From Micrococcales bacterium (GTDB taxonomy: Bacteria; Actinomycetota; Actinomycetes; Actinomycetales; WQXJ01): 64,000 bases of DNA. The stretch lies in the NCBI GenBank assembly GCA_009784895.1, contig WQXJ01000001.1:12479-76478 (forward strand), in the 5' to 3' direction. This document shows positions 2,982-54,382 of the stretch, piece by piece (position 1 is the stretch's first letter; each line of letters starts with the position of its first letter). A program made the translations under genes and the position numbers. The notes below the pieces were generated by a model. That model did not search any database, had not been told where the DNA came from, and was given only the letters and a program-made list of their open reading frames with translations.

Positions 2982-5021
2982 GTGGCCCGGCGCATCCGCA
3001 GCGAAGACATCGAGGAAGTGCGCAGCTCTGCCCGCATCGAGGTGATAGTGGGGGAGAGGGTCTCCCTGAAGCCCGCTGGCGTCGGCTCACTCAAGGGTCT
3101 TTGCCCCTTCCACGACGAGCGCACGGCCTCATTTCACGTCCGCCCGGCTGTGGGGCTATGGCACTGCTTCGGTTGCAGTGAGGGCGGCGACACCATCAAC
3201 TTCGTCATGCGCTCGGACATGCTGGGTTTCGTTGAGGCCGTCGAATACCTGGCTTTGCGCTTTGGCGTGCAGCTGCGCTATGAAACGACCGGGCCCGATG
3301 CCGGCGCCGGGCCGGCCAGCGAATCGACCGCCCCGAGCCGTTCCCGGCTGTTCGAGGCCAACCGGCTGGCAGCCAAATACTACGCCTCACAACTCGACAG
3401 CCCGGCGGCTGTGCTCGGACGCAACTTCCTGCGCGGGCGTGGTTTCGGCAAAGATGACGCCGAAACCTTTGGTCTGGGCTACTCACCGGAAGGCTGGGAT
3501 TCGCTGCTGCGGCATCTGACCAATAACAGCTTTACTCATGCCGAGCTGCTGGCAGCCGGCCTGGTCACCCAGGGACAGCGTGGCGTTTACGACCGCTTTA
3601 GGGGGCGGCTGATGTGGCCCATCCGCGACGTCACCAATCAGGTTGTTGGCTTTGGCGCCCGGCGGCTGGCCGAGGATGACCAGGGCCCCAAATACCTCAA
3701 CACCCCTGAGACCCCGCTATACAAGAAATCCCAGATCCTCTACGGGGTCAACCTGGCCAAACAGGATATTTCAGCTAAGCGGCAAGTCGTGGTGGTGGAG
3801 GGTTACACCGACGTCATGGCCGCCTACCTGGCCGGTGTGCGTGAGGCCGTGGCGACCTGCGGTACGGCCTTTGGCCAAGACCACATCAGGGTGGTTAGGC
3901 GGCTGCTAGGCGACTTTGGCGATCCATCTAGCGGGGTCATTACGGCCGATGGCGGAGCTCGGGGCGGGCGAGTTGTCTTCACCTTTGACGGCGACGCGGC
4001 CGGGCAAAAGGCCGCTCTGCGGGCTTTTCAGGGTGACCAAAGCTTCTACGCCCAGACCTTTGTGGCGATTGTGCCCGGCGGCATGGACCCATGCGATCTC
4101 TGGTACGACCAAGGCGATGATGCGCTAAAAGACCTGGTGGCCACGGCTCAGCCGATGTTCAAGTTCGCTATCCGAGTGGCCCTTGATGCCCTCGATCTGG
4201 ACACGGCAGAAGGCCGGGCGGCTGGCCTGAGAGCCGGGGCGCCAATTGTGGCCGGTATCCGCGACGATGTTATCCGGATGGACTACACCCGGCAGTTGGC
4301 CGGCTGGGTTGGCGCCGACTACTCCCTGGTAATGCGGGAGGTCAAGGCGGCCCGAGGTCGCCCGCAGCGGCTTTCAGAAGCGGGGGAGACGGCATCAGGC
4401 CCTGGGCGGGGGGTCATCCCAGCCGATCCGGTGATCCGAGCCGAGCACTTCGCCATCGCCGCGGCGCTGCAGCACCCTAACCTGGTACCGCCCAGTTTTG
4501 ACCAACTGAGCGGCTCAGACCTAAAAACGCCAACCCTGGCCGCCATCTTGGACGCCATCCAGGCGGCCAGGGGAGTAGCCGTGGCCAGATCTGAGGCCGA
4601 AGCCGCGGCCAAAGCCGCTGTTGAAACCAAGATCAAGGCCGCGGCCGAGGCCGGGGCCAAAACCCCGTCTGAAGCTGAGCTCAAGGCAGAGGCCCAGGCA
4701 GCGGTCGATGCCGTTGCCAAAGCCTGGCTGGCCCGTGTCAGCGACCAAGCGGCCCAAGCAGTGCGCCCGGCTATCACCCAGCTGGCGGTCGAACCGTTGC
4801 CAACCACCGAGGCCGGCCTGGAAGCCTACGTGATTGGGGCGACAGACTCGCTGGTTGAGATGGGGCTGACCCACCAGATAGCAGATCTTGACCGGCGGCT
4901 GCGCCAGGCCGATGGCAGCACCGGTCAGGCTGGCCAAGCCGGTTCTGAGGCCATGCTGCGGCAATTGGCTGAACTGCGGCGCCAACGCGACAGCTTGCGC
5001 CTGGAACAAGGCGACTACTAG
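2982..5021 (+). CDS. dnaG: DNA primase
   Basis: Zinc-ribbon motif CPFHDERTASFHVRP..WHCFGCSEGGD and Toprim segment VVVVEGYTDVMA. GTG start gives MARRIRSEDIEEV. Confidence 0.95.
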   Translation: MARRIRSEDIEEVRSSARIEVIVGERVSLKPAGVGSLKGLCPFHDERTASFHVRPAVGLWHCFGCSEGGDTINFVMRSDMLGFVEAVEYLALRFGVQLRYETTGPDAGAGPASESTAPSRSRLFEANRLAAKYYASQLDSPAAVLGRNFLRGRGFGKDDAETFGLGYSPEGWDSLLRHLTNNSFTHAELLAAGLVTQGQRGVYDRFRGRLMWPIRDVTNQVVGFGARRLAEDDQGPKYLNTPETPLYKKSQILYGVNLAKQDISAKRQVVVVEGYTDVMAAYLAGVREAVATCGTAFGQDHIRVVRRLLGDFGDPSSGVITADGGARGGRVVFTFDGDAAGQKAALRAFQGDQSFYAQTFVAIVPGGMDPCDLWYDQGDDALKDLVATAQPMFKFAIRVALDALDLDTAEGRAAGLRAGAPIVAGIRDDVIRMDYTRQLAGWVGADYSLVMREVKAARGRPQRLSEAGETASGPGRGVIPADPVIRAEHFAIAAALQHPNLVPPSFDQLSGSDLKTPTLAAILDAIQAARGVAVARSEAEAAAKAAVETKIKAAAEAGAKTPSEAELKAEAQAAVDAVAKAWLARVSDQAAQAVRPAITQLAVEPLPTTEAGLEAYVIGATDSLVEMGLTHQIADLDRRLRQADGSTGQAGQAGSEAMLRQLAELRRQRDSLRLEQGDY

Positions 5022-46671: not shown

Positions 46672-47571
46672 TTAGCCGGACCGCCGGCGCCAAGCCCGCC
46701 GGCTAGCGTCTGCCCCCAAGATCACCAGGGCTACCCAGACGGCGGCGAAACCGAGCCACCGCCCCAGCGGCATGGCTTCACCCAGAATGATCACGCCAAC
46801 TAAGAACTGCAGCACTGGGCCCAAGAACTGGATTTGGCCCATCGTGGACAGCGGGATGCGTCTCAGCCCGCCGTTACACAGCAACAGTGGCACCACTGTG
46901 ACCACGCCCAAGCCGACTATGGCCAAGGCGTGCCAAGCGCCAAAACCGAGGAACGACTGACGCCCAGTAACGCCAAACCAGATCAACACGCCCACCGCCA
47001 CGGGGGCGACCACCAAGGTTTCGATCCCCAGTGTGGTCAAAGTGGGTAGCGCCTGACCGACCGTTTTTTCGATGAAGGAGTAGACGGCGAAGGTTAATGC
47101 CACGGTCAGCGCGATCCAAGGCAGGTGACCGGTGGCCCACCAAACCAGGCTCATGCCGATGGCGGCCACACCGACCGCCGTCCACTGCACCACTGCTAAA
47201 CGTTCGCCCAGAAAGGTCACGCCCATGGCCACGGCCAGCAGTGGGCTGATGAAATACCCCAAGGCGGCGTCAATGACCTGACCGGACAAAGTGGCGTAGA
47301 TAAAGGTCAGCCAGTTAATGGTGAGGAGTAGGCCGGCCACGGTCAGCAGGCCGAATTGGCGGCGGTTACGCAGTGCCGCCAGAGCCACACGCCTCTGGCC
47401 GGTCAAACCGACTAGTAGGACACAGACCAGCAGCGACCAGACCACTCGTTGGGCGATTAGCTCCAACGATGAGGTTGGTCGCGCCAGCAGCAAGTAGAGA
47501 GGGAAAAAGCCCCACCAGATATACGAGCCAATGGCCAGCGCCAGGCCGTCTCGGTAGCGGCGGGTCGACAC
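46672..47571 (-). CDS. rarD: EamA-family transporter RarD
   Basis: GSYIWWGFFPLY..LELIAQRVVWSL and ten TM segments. Confidence 0.85.
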   Translation of the reverse strand: MSTRRYRDGLALAIGSYIWWGFFPLYLLLARPTSSLELIAQRVVWSLLVCVLLVGLTGQRRVALAALRNRRQFGLLTVAGLLLTINWLTFIYATLSGQVIDAALGYFISPLLAVAMGVTFLGERLAVVQWTAVGVAAIGMSLVWWATGHLPWIALTVALTFAVYSFIEKTVGQALPTLTTLGIETLVVAPVAVGVLIWFGVTGRQSFLGFGAWHALAIVGLGVVTVVPLLLCNGGLRRIPLSTMGQIQFLGPVLQFLVGVIILGEAMPLGRWLGFAAVWVALVILGADASRRAWRRRSG

Positions 47572-47642
47572 GGATTCATCATAGGTGCCTTGGCCTGTGC
47601 CAGGTGCCCGCCTTCTCGGCTGACCACACCGTTGGCAGGGCC

Positions 47643-50600
47643 TTACTGGAAATCGCGGGAGCGGGCCGGCACCGGCAGATAGAGCGGGTGGAGATGACCG
47701 GCTTTGACCCCAACCGCACCATCTTGCTTTTCCAGGCGACCGCTAACCACCAGGGCTGAGGCGCCGCGAGCGATTTTGCGGTACTTATTCCAGACATCGG
47801 CCGTACAGACCACATTGAGCTGGCCGGTTTCGTCTTCAAGCGAGATGAAGGTGACACCCCTGGCGGTGCCGGGACGCTGTCGGTGGGTGACCACACCGGC
47901 TACTTTTAGCCACAGGCCCTCAACCTGGTCTTGGACTTCGATCAGTCGGAAAACCCCGGCGGCGTCCAATTTGTGGCGGACATGAGCTGTCGGGTACTCC
48001 CCCAGTGACACCCCGGTGGACCAGTAGTCGGCGTAGGCCAGTTCCGCCCGGCTCATAGTCGGTAACGCCGGGGCCTCTAAGCCCACCGATGTGCCGGGCA
48101 AAGTGCCGGCCCCGCCCACTGCGCCGGCCGCCCACAAGGCTCGCCGCCTGTCCCCGGCCAAAGTGTCCAAAGCCCCAGCGGTGGCCAGGGTTTCGAGTTG
48201 GGCCGTGGTCAGTTCGGCCCGCCGGGCCAGGTCCTCCAGCGAGCTAAAGGCCGCCTCTTGGCGGGCTGCCACGATGCTTTCCGCCACCGCTGAGCCAATC
48301 CCGCGGACCTCGGCCAGCCCTAGACGCAGGCCAAGGCCCCGGTCGCCGCGTAGCAGCCCGGGGTGCGGTCCAACCCGGTTAGAAGGCGGCGGCGTTGGCT
48401 CCGGCCCGCTTGGCCCAACCGCTTCGACACTGGCCTTGGCGGCGGAGACAGCCACGTTTGGCCCTAACACCACCAGGCCGTGCCGCCGGGCGTCCGCCAC
48501 TAAGGTTTGCGGCGAGTAGAAGCCCATCGGCTGGCTGGCCAGGATTGAGGCGTAGAAGGCGGCCGGATGGAACACCTTAAGCCAGGCGCTGACGTAGACA
48601 ATCAGAGCAAAGGAAAAGGAATGCGATTCGGGGAAACCAAAGTCAGCAAAGGCCCGCAACTGGTCCCAGATTCGTTGGCGCACTTTAGGTGAGTCAATGC
48701 CGTGGGCGGCCATACCGGCCAACAGATCATCTTTGATCGCCGCCATCCGCTCGACTGAACGTTTGGCGCCCATGGCCCGGCGTAGCTGGTCAGCTTGGGA
48801 CGGGCTGAAACCGGCCGCGTCGATGGCGATTCGCATCAGCTGCTCTTGGAACAGTGGCACGCCAAGCGTCTTTTCTAAGGCTGGGCGCAACAATTCGTGG
48901 TCGTAGCTGACAGCCTGGCGCCCGCGGGCTCGTTCGATGTAAGGGTGAACCGATCCGCCCTGGATTGGGCCGGGGCGGATCAGAGCGACTTCGACCACTA
49001 GGTCATAGAACTTCCGTGGCCTAAGCCGCGGCAAAGTCGCCATTTGGGCTCTGGACTCGACTTGGAAAACCCCGACCGTATCCGCAGCGCAAAGCAGGTC
49101 GTAGACCTCTACCACCTCCGGCGGAATGGTGTGCAGCTCCCAGCGTTTGCCCTCGGTCCGTTCAATCTCATCAAAGGCCAGACTGACTGCCCCCAGCATG
49201 CCCAGTCCCAGCAGGTCGAATTTGACTAACCCGGCTTGGGCCACGTCATCCTTGTCCCATTGCAGCACCGAACGGTCCGCCATCCGGCCCCATTGCACCG
49301 GGCAAACGTCGATCACCGGCCCATCGCATAAGACCATGCCGCCGGGGTGTATACCCAGGTGGCGAGGCAAAGATGTCAACTGCTCAGCAAGGTCCAAGAC
49401 ATCTTTGGGGATGCCGCTGAGGTCGTCATCAGCCACTTCCACTTTGGCCCCGGCCTTGCCCCAGGGCCGGTAGTGGATCTGGCCCCGCTTGAGGTCGCCA
49501 TAGCGTTCGATCCGCTTGGACCAAGCGGCCAGCTGCCCCGGGTCATAGCCCAAGGCCCGGCCGGCATCACGCAAGGCCAAACGGGTGCGATAGGAGATCA
49601 CCGCGCCAACTAAGGCCGCCCGTTCCCGGCCGTATTTGGCGTAGACATGTTGAATTACCTCCTCGCGCCGGCCGGATTCGATGTCGAGGTCAATATCGGG
49701 ATAACCCTCACGTTCTGGGGCCAAGAACCGTTCGAACAGCAGCCCGTGGCGGACCGCGTCGACCGCCGTGATGCCAAGGGCGTAGCAAACGGCCGAATTG
49801 GCCGCGCTACCCCGCCCCTGACACAGGATGGATTGGTCACGGCAAAAGTCGACTATCTCCCACATGATCAGGAAGTAGCCGGCCAGGTCGAGCTGGGCGA
49901 TGATGGTCAGTTCGTGTTCAAGCACGGCGTAAGCCTTGTCGTTGCCTGCCCCTGGTGGTCCGTAGCGCCTCTTGGCGCCGGCCAAGGTCAAATGGCGCAG
50001 CCAGCTGTTGTTGTTGTGCCCGGCCGGCACCGCCACTGGCGGCAGCTGAGGTGCTATCAACCGCAGGTCAAAGGCGCATTCGGCACCCAGAGCGGCAGCC
50101 ATAGCGACCGCCTCAGGGTGTGTCCGATGCCGGCGCGCCACGTCGGCAGGGCATCTCAAGTGGGCGGTCGGTGCGGCGGGCAGGTAGCCGTCCATTTGGT
50201 CCAGCGATTGGCGCTGCTTCAACGCGGCCATAGCTGTGGCCAGTGGGAACTGACTTGGGTTGGCGAAGTGAATATTGCCGGTGGCAACTAAAGCCGTCCG
50301 GCCCCGCTGGGCCACCTGGGCCAGGGCGTCACAGCGGGCCGGGTCGAAGGGATCACCGCCCTGGGTGATCTCGACGGCCACATTGTCCCGGCCAAATAGC
50401 GCGGTCAGTTGGTCAAGAGCCCGCCCGGCCGCGTCCAGGTTCCACCCATCGACGCTCTCGATCCCTCTCAAGGGTCCTTGGCGGCAGCCGGTTAGGACCA
50501 GCCATTCGCCGCCACCTTGCTCAGCCAGTTCTTCCAGTTCAAAACTCGGTTGACCTTGCGGCCCTGGGAGATTGCCTAACGCCACTCTCCCAGGGTCCGG

Positions 50601-51017: not shown

Positions 51018-52734
51018 AGACCCCCTCAATCTGCCAAACCCCGTTTTGACAGGCCAACAAGGACAAGACGGTGCCATTTGGCCGCGTCTTCGCCGGCAGA
51101 AGCTGCGCCTCTGCCGCGTGCGACACGGGGGTGCCCTCAGGCACCGTCGTGTCAAGGGCGGCGCTATTTGGCCGCGTCTTCGCCGGCAGAAGCTGCGCCT
51201 CTGCCGCGTGCGACACGGGTTGATCCGATTCGACCTGGAGGTAGACCCGGCGCTGTGGTTGTCTGGTCCACCACCGCTCTACTACGGGCCAAGGGCCGGC
51301 CCAACCCTTAACCGGGGCGTTGTCTAGGCGGCTTGGCTCCCCCGACAACTCCAAAGTGGCGCTGACGCGCACCAGGTTGCCACCGGCATCGGACAGATTG
51401 ACCGGCCACGGCTTAGATGGCACCAAAGCTGGTGCTGGGTCAGGTAACTTGCCTGGCCAAGGTTGGTTTAGCGGGCGCAACGGCACGGCCTCATCGCCCC
51501 ATTGGACCAGGCGGATGCGGCTACGGGGGTCACGCCCACCTTGTTCAACTGGCTGGAAGACGGCGCCTTCGCCCAGCATGGCTTGGAGACGATCAGCCCC
51601 GCGGGCGGCCCTGGCCTGGGCTTGGCCTTCGTTGTCCCATAGGCGCGCGGCCGATCCCCCGGCTGGATGAACTTCCTCCGCCTGTAGGCGGATCAGCACT
51701 AGGGCTCCGGTCGGAGCTAGACCACTGCGACCAGTCAGCCAGCCCTCCAACTGCCAACGCAGGCGGTCACGCACCCCGGTCGCGTCAACGCCGTCAAGCC
51801 GCCAGCTGCGGCTGAGGGTTTCGCCGTGTTCGGTGGTGGCTTCGATCCTGAGCCGGTCATAGCTCTGGCCGTGATGGGCCAATTGGCGGTGAAGATCTTC
51901 CGCTAAGCGGCGGCCCAAAAAGGCGGCAGCCTCAATCTGGGTGACAGGCGGGTCGGGTTGGGCTTGCACCACGAACTGAGGCTCTGGTCTCAGAGCCGTC
52001 ACGATCAGGGCGTCTTCTGCCCTGGCCAGGCGCCTAGCCCAAATACCGGTGGTGCCAAAACGCTCGCTGACGGCGCTGGCTGGCAGATTGGCTAGATCCC
52101 CCAAAGTCCGCACGCCTAGGCGGGCTAGCAGGTCGATCAGAGGGTTCAAAACGTCAGCCTGGACCGTGCCTTGCAGAGCCAGTTGGAGCTCTGGTAATGG
52201 CCTAGGTTCAAGGAATTGACTAGAGTGCCCCGTTTGAACGATCCGGTTCTCCCGCGCCGCCAAGATAGCGGCCAACGGGCCATCAGCCACCCCGACCCAA
52301 GCCTCAGAACCAGTCTGAGTGGTGAGCTCATCCAATAGGTGTTCGGCCAGAGCTTGATCAGAGCCGTGGTAACGAGCAGCCCGACCGGCGGGGCATAAGG
52401 CCAAACCGGGTCTAAGCAGCTCGACCCCTGGCACCTGGTCATCCAAGGCTTTAGCCAGCTGCGCAAAGGTTCGAGCGTCGCGGGCTTGGTCGGCTGGCAC
52501 CAGCTGGGCTGCGGGGCAGGCGTCTTGGGCGGTGCGGCGTTTCATACCGCGCCTAGCTCCGGCCTTTCTGGCGGCGGCCGAAAGAGCCTTCACCCGCCCA
52601 GAGCCAAGCACAATGACAGGCTGGTCAGCCGGCGCCTGGCCAGCCATGATGGCGGCTACCACCGGCCAATCCGGTACCCACAAAGCGGCCAGGCGGCGGC
52701 CAGGCGGCGCACTATTCACTAGCCTTCTGGTCAT
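51010..52734 (-). CDS. imuB: Y-family polymerase-like mutasome subunit ImuB
   Basis: LAALWVPDWPV start region and a Y-family-like core. Sits between imuA' and dnaE2. Preferred ATG at 52734 forms an ATGA overlap with the imuA' stop. Confidence 0.85.
   Translation of the reverse strand: MTRRLVNSAPPGRRLAALWVPDWPVVAAIMAGQAPADQPVIVLGSGRVKALSAAARKAGARRGMKRRTAQDACPAAQLVPADQARDARTFAQLAKALDDQVPGVELLRPGLALCPAGRAARYHGSDQALAEHLLDELTTQTGSEAWVGVADGPLAAILAARENRIVQTGHSSQFLEPRPLPELQLALQGTVQADVLNPLIDLLARLGVRTLGDLANLPASAVSERFGTTGIWARRLARAEDALIVTALRPEPQFVVQAQPDPPVTQIEAAAFLGRRLAEDLHRQLAHHGQSYDRLRIEATTEHGETLSRSWRLDGVDATGVRDRLRWQLEGWLTGRSGLAPTGALVLIRLQAEEVHPAGGSAARLWDNEGQAQARAARGADRLQAMLGEGAVFQPVEQGGRDPRSRIRLVQWGDEAVPLRPLNQPWPGKLPDPAPALVPSKPWPVNLSDAGGNLVRVSATLELSGEPSRLDNAPVKGWAGPWPVVERWWTRQPQRRVYLQVESDQPVSHAAEAQLLPAKTRPNSAALDTTVPEGTPVSHAAEAQLLPAKTRPNGTVLSLLACQNGVWQIEGVYD
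51077..51129. repeat. palindromic repeat element, copy B (inside imuB)
   Basis: Identical to copy C and 49/52 identical to copy A by hand alignment. Hairpin at 51095-51115. Confidence 0.85.
51167..51219. repeat. palindromic repeat element, copy C (inside imuB)
   Basis: Exactly 90 bp from copy B. The flanking sequences differ between B and C. Confidence 0.85.
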
Positions 52735-53480
52735 ATCGCTGCCAATCGCTTTGGCTGTTGGTTGGTGGCTAGCGGATCTTGTTGGTGCTGGTGGTCGGGT
52801 GGCTGATGTGGCTGGCCGGCCGCCAAAACCTGCGCTCCGGACCAACGCACATCCAGCCACCCGGCTTCTAGCAGGCCATCGCCTTGCCCTAATGACCGGT
52901 GGCTGATCTGGCTGATTTCGACTTTGAGTTGAGCCCCAGGCCATTGACCACTAGTCACTAAATAGCCTTGATGGTGACGCAAACGGGCCTCTAAGCGCCG
53001 CCGGTCTGCCGCTTGGGAGGCAGTGGCCGTCCAACTATCACCTAATACCACCACGCCAAAGGCGTCGATCAAACTGGCTAGCGCCTTGACCCCACCATCG
53101 CCCAGATCCGGTACCACCACCGCTCGTTCCAAGGCCACCCCGGCCTGGGCCGCAGCCAGGTAACCCAGATCAGGCAGGTGGGCCAAGGCGCCCCAGGTTT
53201 GGGCCTGCCAAACCCCGGCTGCCACCGCCAGCAAGGCGCTAGTTGAACCAGTAACCTGGGCTACCTGCCCTGGTGCCAACAGTGCCGCAGCTGTGGTCTT
53301 GACCTCATCTAAAGTGCACTGGCTGGTCCCGCCGTCTTGTGCGGCCACCAAACGCAACCGCGGCGGGTCCAACGAGCGGTCGAGCCCAGCCTGGCTAACC
53401 GGCCGGGTGCCAGTTGAAACCTCGGCCTGCTTGAGCGCCTGGCTGGCCCTGGCCAGGCGTAGTGCTTGGCTCTCCCCCAC
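52731..53480 (-). CDS. imuA': ImuA'-like mutasome accessory protein
   Basis: First gene of the imuA'-imuB-dnaE2 arrangement. RecA-core-like stretch VAQVTGSTSALLAVAAG..GVALERAVVVPD..FGVVVLGD. Confidence 0.7.
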   Translation of the reverse strand: MGESQALRLARASQALKQAEVSTGTRPVSQAGLDRSLDPPRLRLVAAQDGGTSQCTLDEVKTTAAALLAPGQVAQVTGSTSALLAVAAGVWQAQTWGALAHLPDLGYLAAAQAGVALERAVVVPDLGDGGVKALASLIDAFGVVVLGDSWTATASQAADRRRLEARLRHHQGYLVTSGQWPGAQLKVEISQISHRSLGQGDGLLEAGWLDVRWSGAQVLAAGQPHQPPDHQHQQDPLATNQQPKRLAAI

Positions 53481-53499: not shown

Positions 53500-53511
53500 A
53501 TACATTTGTTC
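53500..53511. promoter_or_regulatory. Cheo/LexA-box-like site 1
   Basis: ATACATTTGTTC compared with GAAC-N4-GTTC; one half-site is perfect. Confidence 0.4.
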
Positions 53512-53521
53512 TAGACCTATC

Positions 53522-53550
53522 AGTCTAACATTGCTAGAACATTTGTCCAA
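53522..53550 (-). promoter_or_regulatory. candidate promoter of the imuA' operon
   Basis: Minus strand reads TTGGAC-N17-TAGACT, about 40 nt upstream of the GTG at 53480. Confidence 0.4.
53537..53548. promoter_or_regulatory. Cheo/LexA-box-like site 2
   Basis: GAACATTTGTCC has one mismatch to GAAC-N4-GTTC and overlaps the -35 and spacer. Confidence 0.45.
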
Positions 53551-53608: not shown

Positions 53609-53670
53609 CCGCACTGCCCTGGATCGAGTCTCACCCTGGCCGCACTGCCCTGGATCGAGTCTCACCCTGG
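53609..53670. repeat. 31-bp perfect tandem repeat, 2 copies
   Basis: ccgcactgccctggatcgagtctcaccctgg appears twice, head to tail. Confidence 0.9.
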
Positions 53671-53719
53671 CCGGCCTGGGCTTCCGGCTTGAACTGGGGT
53701 TTTACGGAGAACGGTGTCC

Positions 53720-53812
53720 GGTGCGGGTGAAAGTCGTTCGGCTGGGCCCCGGTGCGGGTGAAAGTCGTTCGGCTGGGCCCCGGTGCGGGTGAAAGTCGAT
53801 TGGCTGGACCAC
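53720..53812. repeat. 31-bp tandem repeat, 3 copies (third diverged)
   Basis: ggtgcgggtgaaagtcgttcggctgggcccc appears twice perfectly, then ggtgcgggtgaaagtcgattggctggaccacc. Confidence 0.9.
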
Positions 53813-53848
53813 CGTGCTATCAGCGCACCATTGAAGTAGCATCCAGTT

Positions 53849-54382
53849 ATGAACCTTGAACGAACCCCGCCGCCCGATCCTTACACCCTGTTACCAGCTG
53901 TCCCAGCCTTCCAATTGACCAGCAATGACCTGGTCGACGGCGGACCGTTGGACAAGCGCCACGTCCTCGAATTCGACAATATCTCCCCCCACCTGGCCTG
54001 GTCTGGTTTCCCCCCTGAGACCAAGAGCTTTGCTGTGACCGACTTTGACCCAGATGCACCAACACCGTCCGGTTGGTGGCACTGGATGCTGGTCGACTTG
54101 CCGCCCAGTGTGACCGAGCTCAAGCGCAACGCCGGCCAGTCCGACCAGACCCTGCCCAGCCCGGCCTACCACATCAAATGCGATAACTCGGTTTGGGCCT
54201 ACGCCGGCTCGGCCCCGCCCCCGGGTGACTACCCGCACACCTACTACTTCGCCGTTCACGCCCTAGACACCGACAAGCTCGAGATTGACAGGGACACCTC
54301 GGCTGCCTGCTCCGGTCTGTATATGACCTTCCACACCATCGCTCGGGCGGTTATGACCTCAACCTGGTCAGCGCCAGCCTAA
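53849..54382 (+). CDS. YbhB/YbcL family (PEBP-like) protein
   Basis: SPHLAWSGFPPETKSFAVTDFDPDAP..WWHW..HTYYFAVHALD. Confidence 0.85.
   Translation: MNLERTPPPDPYTLLPAVPAFQLTSNDLVDGGPLDKRHVLEFDNISPHLAWSGFPPETKSFAVTDFDPDAPTPSGWWHWMLVDLPPSVTELKRNAGQSDQTLPSPAYHIKCDNSVWAYAGSAPPPGDYPHTYYFAVHALDTDKLEIDRDTSAACSGLYMTFHTIARAVMTSTWSAPA

Follow-up and report, generated by a model that had tools for sequence, protein, structure and literature searches.

Two blocks of 31-bp tandem repeats stand between imuA' and a PEBP gene in the genome studied here, and their arrangement raises the question of what kind of sequence they are and whether they serve either neighbor. The window, by which we mean the whole 64,000-nt stretch that was analyzed, lies on contig C1 of a 2.36-Mb assembly (G000; 111 contigs, 62% G+C) from an uncultured Micrococcales bacterium. 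A sequence-only reading had described the blocks as an unusual two-family inverted locus, which could pair as a long hairpin or cruciform or act as opposed protein-binding iterons. Our analysis places them in a dispersed family of composite repeat elements. The block in the window is probably a gene-less, partly decayed copy of such an element, whose family has a candidate nuclease partner with AbiEi_4 and DUF559 domains.

The composite element between imuA' and PEBP

The two arrays and their common period of 31 bp were recovered by both TRF and a repeat search of the window. TRF placed the left array at 53609-53673 (2.1 copies, 100% matches) and the right array at 53718-53807 (2.9 copies, 96% matches). 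In the repeat search, the left unit, R1 (CCGCACTGCCCTGGATCGAGTCTCACCCTGG), was found at 53609 and 53640, both with 100% identity, and the right unit, R2, was found at 53718 and 53749 (100%) and at 53780 (87%). The gap between the arrays is 44-49 bp, with the value set by the phase that is chosen. The whole element thus delimited is 209 bp long (53609-53817, plus strand) and has an arm-center-arm composition. The left arm (53609-53670) consists of two perfect units of the family-A type with the core GGATCGAG..CACCC. The right arm (53718-53817) contains three R2 units, two perfect and the outermost 87% identical, which are inverted family-A units (GGTGC-GGGTGAA-N-TCGTT) with small indels. Between them, the 47-bp center (53671-53717) holds a diverged copy, GAACTGGGGTTTTAC (53691-53705), of the family-A center core ACCTGGGGTTTCGCC; its assignment is based on a colinear alignment with ten other family-A elements and on a census of center motifs. 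The units abut and have no spacers, and the locus is therefore not a CRISPR array, as had been noted.

The position of the element between the imuA' promoter and the PEBP gene was also as previously described. The imuA' gene (52731-53480) is on the minus strand, and its promoter region (53502-53549, minus strand) is outside the element, 60 bp to its left. This region contains two LexA-like boxes at 53502-53514 and 53534-53546 (inverted repeat I9) and a promoter-like site on the minus strand (53549-53522), on the imuA' side of the element. LexA and PafBC had been put forward as candidate binders of the repeats, and neither was supported. The PEBP gene (PF01161; 53849-54382, plus strand) starts with an ATG at 53849, and a TAGCAT box resembling a −10 element is located about 6-7 nt before this codon (window 53837-53851). 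The element ends approximately 20 bp upstream of the box. G007, a genome of the same family but another genus, carries TAGAAT at the equivalent place before its PEBP ATG (L014 1352-1369). The presence of a −10-like box near the ATG in both genomes suggests that the PEBP transcript is leaderless, with the TAGCAT box as its putative core promoter. A 17-nt direct repeat with 76% identity brackets the element (53517-53533, CTATCAGTCTAACATTG, and 53817-53833, CTATCAGCGCACCATTG); it could be a decayed target duplication or a chance occurrence.

The number of units at this site appears to vary. Contig k141_1002720 of the ENA assembly ERZ27264051, which represents the same strain, encodes an identical PEBP protein and has exactly one 31-bp R2 unit fewer, in a comparison of two short-read metagenome assemblies. 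Elsewhere, the two sequences differ by 5 SNPs in 2969 bp, and the remaining 3.6 kb are 100% identical. Because the second assembly has exactly one R2 unit fewer, the proposed VNTR-like behavior holds for this locus, but the likeness to MIRUs does not. Element length differs between near-identical strains, and in the window it does so directly upstream of the predicted core promoter.

The same region of G007 provides a candidate empty site. There, imuA' and the PEBP gene are divergent neighbors, both LexA-like boxes are conserved, and no block equivalent to the repeats is present. The distance from the second LexA-like box to the PEBP ATG is approximately 55 bp in G007 and 300 bp in the window, and the whole element falls into an alignment gap of approximately 245 bp. 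Since G007 belongs to a distant genus (~60-70% identity), the absence of the element may reflect a deletion there. The element between imuA' and PEBP probably has little or no function of its own.

A dispersed family of 31-bp elements

When the whole genome was scanned with TRF, a period of 31 bp was found at 47 distinct loci, while periods of 28, 29, 30, and 32 bp were found at 0-7 loci. After merging, the search for further copies gave 63 arrays with the 31-bp period, which occupy 45 intergenic spans. Seventeen pairs of arrays are in inverted orientation, 25-67 bp apart. The locus in the window is thus not a unique "two-family" structure but one copy of a composite element dispersed over approximately 45 sites. 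A purely local VNTR, born in place by slippage, would explain the perfect tandem copies and the one-unit difference between the assemblies; however, it is refuted by the homologous composite elements elsewhere in the genome, and we give it practically no credence. According to a crude in-house gene caller, all 45 spans, 9.7 kb in total, lie between genes. Thirteen of them lie between convergent genes, four between divergent genes, and 15 between genes in tandem, and the other 13 are within 350 bp of a contig end. The elements evidently break short-read assemblies.

By sequence, at least four families of 31-bp arrays can be distinguished: A (with a subtype A'), B, C, and D. The families have a common layout, in which a left arm of 31-mers is followed by a family-specific conserved center of 30-57 bp and an inverted right arm of 31-mers. 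Within each family, the left and right arms are consistently of different subtypes. The center motif CCCCAGGTGG is common to families A and B; family A adds ..CCACCTGGGGTTTCGCC, and family B has GCGTTTCCCCAGGTGG. Even the seemingly unpaired family-B arrays carry a center and a short partner arm. The outermost units of the arms are usually the most diverged in paired elements, and the third R2 unit of the window element has an identity of 87%; across the arms, the inner-to-outer identity gradient is a weak trend only. A 61-bp-period set of TRF rows in the same genome (C33:338-1039), with the common core GGGATCACCCCCGCTCGCGCGGGGAACAC, resembles a CRISPR array made of repeats and spacers.

The window element belongs to family A. 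In a search of its own genome, it matched a copy on C35 with 71% identity over 130 bp (E 2.7e-7), and this match spans an arm, the center, and the start of the other arm. R1 matched arrays on C56 and C65 with 83-85% identity (C56, 85%, E 2e-8). In a collapsed alignment composed of the last left unit, the center, and the first right units, the window element and ten other copies of family A are colinear. The layout common to this alignment is GGATCGAG..TGGCCGG, 17 nt, (A)CCTGGGGTTTCGCC, ~10 nt, and GTCCGGTGCAGGGTGAACTCG. The best match of the window to the family-A unit HMM was R1 (E 0.046), and R2 by itself gave no significant match to this HMM. The two arrays had been thought to be inverted relative to each other, which is correct but becomes clear only through the family, by colinearity with the ten other arm-center-arm copies.

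This inversion had been recognized from a complementarity between R1 and R2 that was seen by hand. The complementarity exists, with 12 of 15 positions matching between GATCGAGTCTCACCC and GAACGACTTTCACCC, but it is not significant on its own: the local alignment of R1 with the reverse complement of R2 has a score of 15 (shuffles, 11.8 ± 2.8), which was matched by 136 of 1000 shuffles. Likewise, the minimum free energy structure of the window copy is a hairpin between the left and right arms, but energetically this hairpin is not superior to dinucleotide shuffles (z = −0.3 for RNA, −0.1 for DNA, and −1.4 in a separate run). The long hairpin or cruciform proposed for the window copy was therefore not borne out. 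All of the other paired elements (15 of 16) fold with z = −2.5 to −9. Therefore, the family is capable of forming foldback structures, and the window copy appears to be worn.

These folding energies, together with the hairpin predicted for the window copy and the 13 elements between convergent genes, would favor an explanation in which the paired arms form a long hairpin that regulates the expression of PEBP or imuA', or that serves as a terminator or insulator elsewhere. However, the complementarity of the arms within one element is 16-21 of 31 positions, which is no higher than that across different elements of the same family, and compensatory changes between the arms of one element are absent. 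Individual elements thus do not maintain the pairing of their arms. The complementarity stems from conserved blocks that are common to both arm types, and the consistent difference in subtype between the left and right arms is also at odds with a selected stem. A terminator scan found no terminator-like site at the window locus, and a search against Rfam 15 gave nothing near the threshold at this locus or at five other element loci. Moreover, the elements are found in all gene contexts and orientations. The hairpin explanation is therefore quite improbable, and oppositely oriented protein sites appear to fit the data better. The earlier suggestion of opposed protein-binding iterons comes close to our preferred reading, in which each unit is a putative binding site.

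Neither target-site duplications nor sharp conserved termini were found in the elements of G000, and their outer ends shift with the number of units. Duplicated flanks accompany several elements. They were observed on C56 (2645-2899 and 3771-4025), C49 (3512-3595 and 4048-4131), C32 (8066-8444 and 10579-10958), and C34 (24973-25367 and 27548-27750), and the duplicated flank on C56 includes the 3' end of a gene for a 784-aa membrane protein. The repeated occurrence of such duplications suggests that the elements promote local segmental duplication.

Nuclease genes bracketed by the elements

Clustering of the open reading frames near all 31-bp arrays revealed a single recurrent real gene. It is present as three paralogues that are 47-54% identical, and each of them has complete elements on either side, which are in direct orientation. 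The paralogue at C78:3401-4504 is flanked by family B, that at C60:3260-4201 by family A, and that at C55:8178-9179 by family D. No partner gene was found for family C. The flanks of the nuclease genes are complete elements, and the genes do not split an element.

The three proteins combine an AbiEi_4 winged-helix domain, detected with a borderline score, with a DUF559/MTES_1575 domain (PF04480, PF18741), and Pfam gave no other domains. The motifs D..ExDG..H..DR, which include the catalytic residues D..ExDG..H, are invariant. An AlphaFold model of the nuclease has a pLDDT of 61 overall and of approximately 76-92 in the C-terminal domain. The modeled C-terminal domain matches I-Bth0305I, a homing endonuclease, and NGO0050, a DUF559 protein (3r3p, 3hrl), with TM scores of 0.74-0.76, which is consistent with a predicted DUF559/Vsr-like PD-(D/E)XK nuclease; the modeled N-terminal part matches AbiEi weakly. 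An exact-protein look-up of the C78 nuclease returned no record, a word-based homologue search gave five distant matches only, and comparisons with the PDB by sequence and with NCBIfam gave nothing useful. Our literature search found no paper linking AbiEi with DUF559, or DUF559 with REPIN-like repeats.

Four more distant DUF559 paralogues are encoded in G000. Another abundant class of repeats in this genome has the core CGCGAGTCCGAGCTTTGGCACCA or CGACACCGAGCTTC and periods of 32-66 bp, and two of the distant paralogues lie just downstream of its arrays (array C2:46826-47061, gene 47365-48189; array C58:3572-3972, gene 4160-4963). This class may therefore have DUF559 partners of its own.

The recurrence of this gene bears on the possibility that the elements are MITEs of a conventional transposon, in which the arms would be sub-terminal transposase-binding repeats served in trans by a transposase encoded elsewhere (for example, an IS481-like enzyme). 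The elements are indeed dispersed, intergenic, grouped into families, and of foldback form. However, no transposase recurs near the arrays, where the DUF559 gene is the only recurrent one, and the outer ends, which differ according to the number of units, have neither conserved termini nor target duplications. We consider a MITE origin very improbable.

The association between nuclease genes and foldback repeats extends to relatives, while the repeat sequences themselves do not. Family-A and family-B DNA was absent from 18 genomes of the same family, and the family-B pattern was absent from 185,579 GTDB species genomes; in JGI metagenomes, this pattern gave six matches, all of which were unrelated 21-bp repeats. 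Nevertheless, foldback elements were found within ~350 bp at 12 of 14 homologue loci in the same-family genomes, and four of them have a 31-bp period. In G015, 31-bp arms, a center (GACCTGGGAGAACGC), and an inverted arm lie 125 bp upstream of the gene. In G017, two plus two units of 31 bp surround CAAAACCCCAGGTCAC and abut the stop codon of the gene, with the element oriented opposite to it. Units of 31 bp also lie beside the gene in G012 and G013, and palindromes lie on both sides of it in G005 and G001. The five elements that were tested are each dispersed in their own genome only, with at least 45 loci in G017, at least 45 in G005, at least 12 in G012, at least 10 in G004, and at least 8 in G015.

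The 31-bp arm-center-arm module of G017 sits in a larger dispersed composite of ~500 bp (L081, L083, L085, L086, L089), which also contains 42-bp G+C-rich repeats in varying number and, on its right, a conserved tail with the end ..GACTTTGCTCAAGGCCCTG. No target-site duplications or sharp termini were found in 12 copies from G017, which are parts of this composite. Among named genomes, which included Cellulomonas, Actinotalea, Flavimobilis, Mycobacterium, and Actinomycetospora, the upstream and downstream flanks matched at 19 of 39 full-length homologues; in mismatched controls, this was the case for 4 of 39. The G000 genes have their nearest named homologues in Cellulomonas, Actinotalea, and Flavimobilis. 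Multi-unit 31-bp arms are not typical beside homologues outside this bacterial family.

A different account of the association is that the arrays are phased sites for a nucleoid protein or another host protein, or merely unstable DNA, and that DUF559 genes lie beside them only because such selfish genes insert in them or duplicate with them. The flank duplications that accompany elements on C56, C49, C32, and C34 agree with this account, as do the missing target duplications and termini and the family C without a partner gene. However, each paralogue has its own repeat family, and each gene in the relatives has its own genome-specific family; furthermore, complete elements flank the genes, and none is split by a gene. 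Co-evolving partners fit this pattern of private repeat families better than chance landing, and we regard the host-factor or hotspot account as unlikely.

The preferred reading, in which the elements and the AbiEi_4-DUF559 nucleases are partners, leads to a possible mechanism. The data show the family membership, the architecture, the dispersal between genes, the change in copy number, and the association of genes with repeats; binding, cleavage, and any mode of mobility are inferred. Each 31-bp unit, which corresponds to approximately three helical turns, would be the place where the winged helix (AbiEi_4) of the cognate nuclease docks. The nuclease would act at or near the center and would thereby maintain or spread the elements, much as REPINs are maintained or spread by RAYT transposases. 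Slippage or unequal exchange would add or remove whole units and so change the length of the arms. For family A, and hence for the window element, the candidate partner is the C60 gene (3260-4201), which is bracketed by family-A elements. The three bracketed nuclease genes and the dozens of gene-less copies make the DUF559-repeat partnership directly testable, and they offer a testable function for actinobacterial proteins of a very large "unknown" family.

Comparison with known repeat systems

The BoxC/PIT/TMECO triplex has the consensus CCCTCNCCC N3-6 GGGNGAGGG N3 GGGNGAGGG (PMC4666352). This three-block consensus is absent from 53609-53817 and from the consensus units of the families.

Several other systems have partial similarities. 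MIRUs of mycobacteria are direct repeats of 40-100 bp in a single orientation. Like MIRUs and other VNTRs, the elements described here lie between genes and consist of tandem units, and near-identical genomes differ in how many units they have; unlike MIRUs, they have 31-bp units, two opposed arms, and a center, and they form a dispersed multi-family population. The BIMEs of E. coli are mosaics of inverted REPs with conserved linker motifs, and they share with our elements the oppositely oriented units around conserved linkers, the intergenic location, and the strain-variable unit number. However, there is no sequence relation, and the 31-bp units follow one another head to tail in strict phase on either side of a single center. 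The Foldback (FB) transposons of Drosophila have inverted arms of variable length that are built from short tandem sub-repeats. The similarity to them is one of architecture only, because FB transposons belong to eukaryotes and share neither sequence nor enzyme with the 31-bp elements.

The closest functional parallel may be the REPIN/RAYT system of Pseudomonas and enterobacteria, in which doublets of REP sequences are reportedly associated with a REP-associated tyrosine transposase. To our knowledge, REPs and REPINs are the only ones among the common small intergenic repeats of bacteria with an identified enzyme partner. Both systems consist of short foldback repeats that are intergenic, genome-specific, and present in tens of copies, and in both, a partner gene of low copy number has copies of its own repeat on its flanks, and several gene/repeat pairs can reside in one genome. 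They differ in the partner, which here combines an AbiEi_4 winged helix with a DUF559/Vsr-like PD-(D/E)XK domain instead of a Y1/HUH (IS200/IS605-like) transposase, and in the arms, which here are phased tandem 31-bp arrays with a separate conserved center. Since the Y1 transposase that defines REPIN/RAYT is absent, the 31-bp elements are not members of that system.

More speculatively, and with less confidence than in the partnership itself, we propose that the AbiEi_4-DUF559 nucleases might constitute another class of "repeat-keeping" enzymes, unrelated to the RAYTs but analogous to them. In this Micrococcales family, their winged helix would read the phased 31-bp units, their action would take place at the conserved CCCCAGGTGG-type center, and three orthogonal, co-evolving pairs would reside in one 2.4-Mb genome. 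If this is true, recognition specificity could be read from the natural pairs of paralogues and repeats, because three orthogonal enzyme/repeat pairs would be available in the same genome. Among partnerships of DUF559 genes with repeats, the phased 31-bp multi-unit arms and the three co-resident gene/repeat pairs are new.
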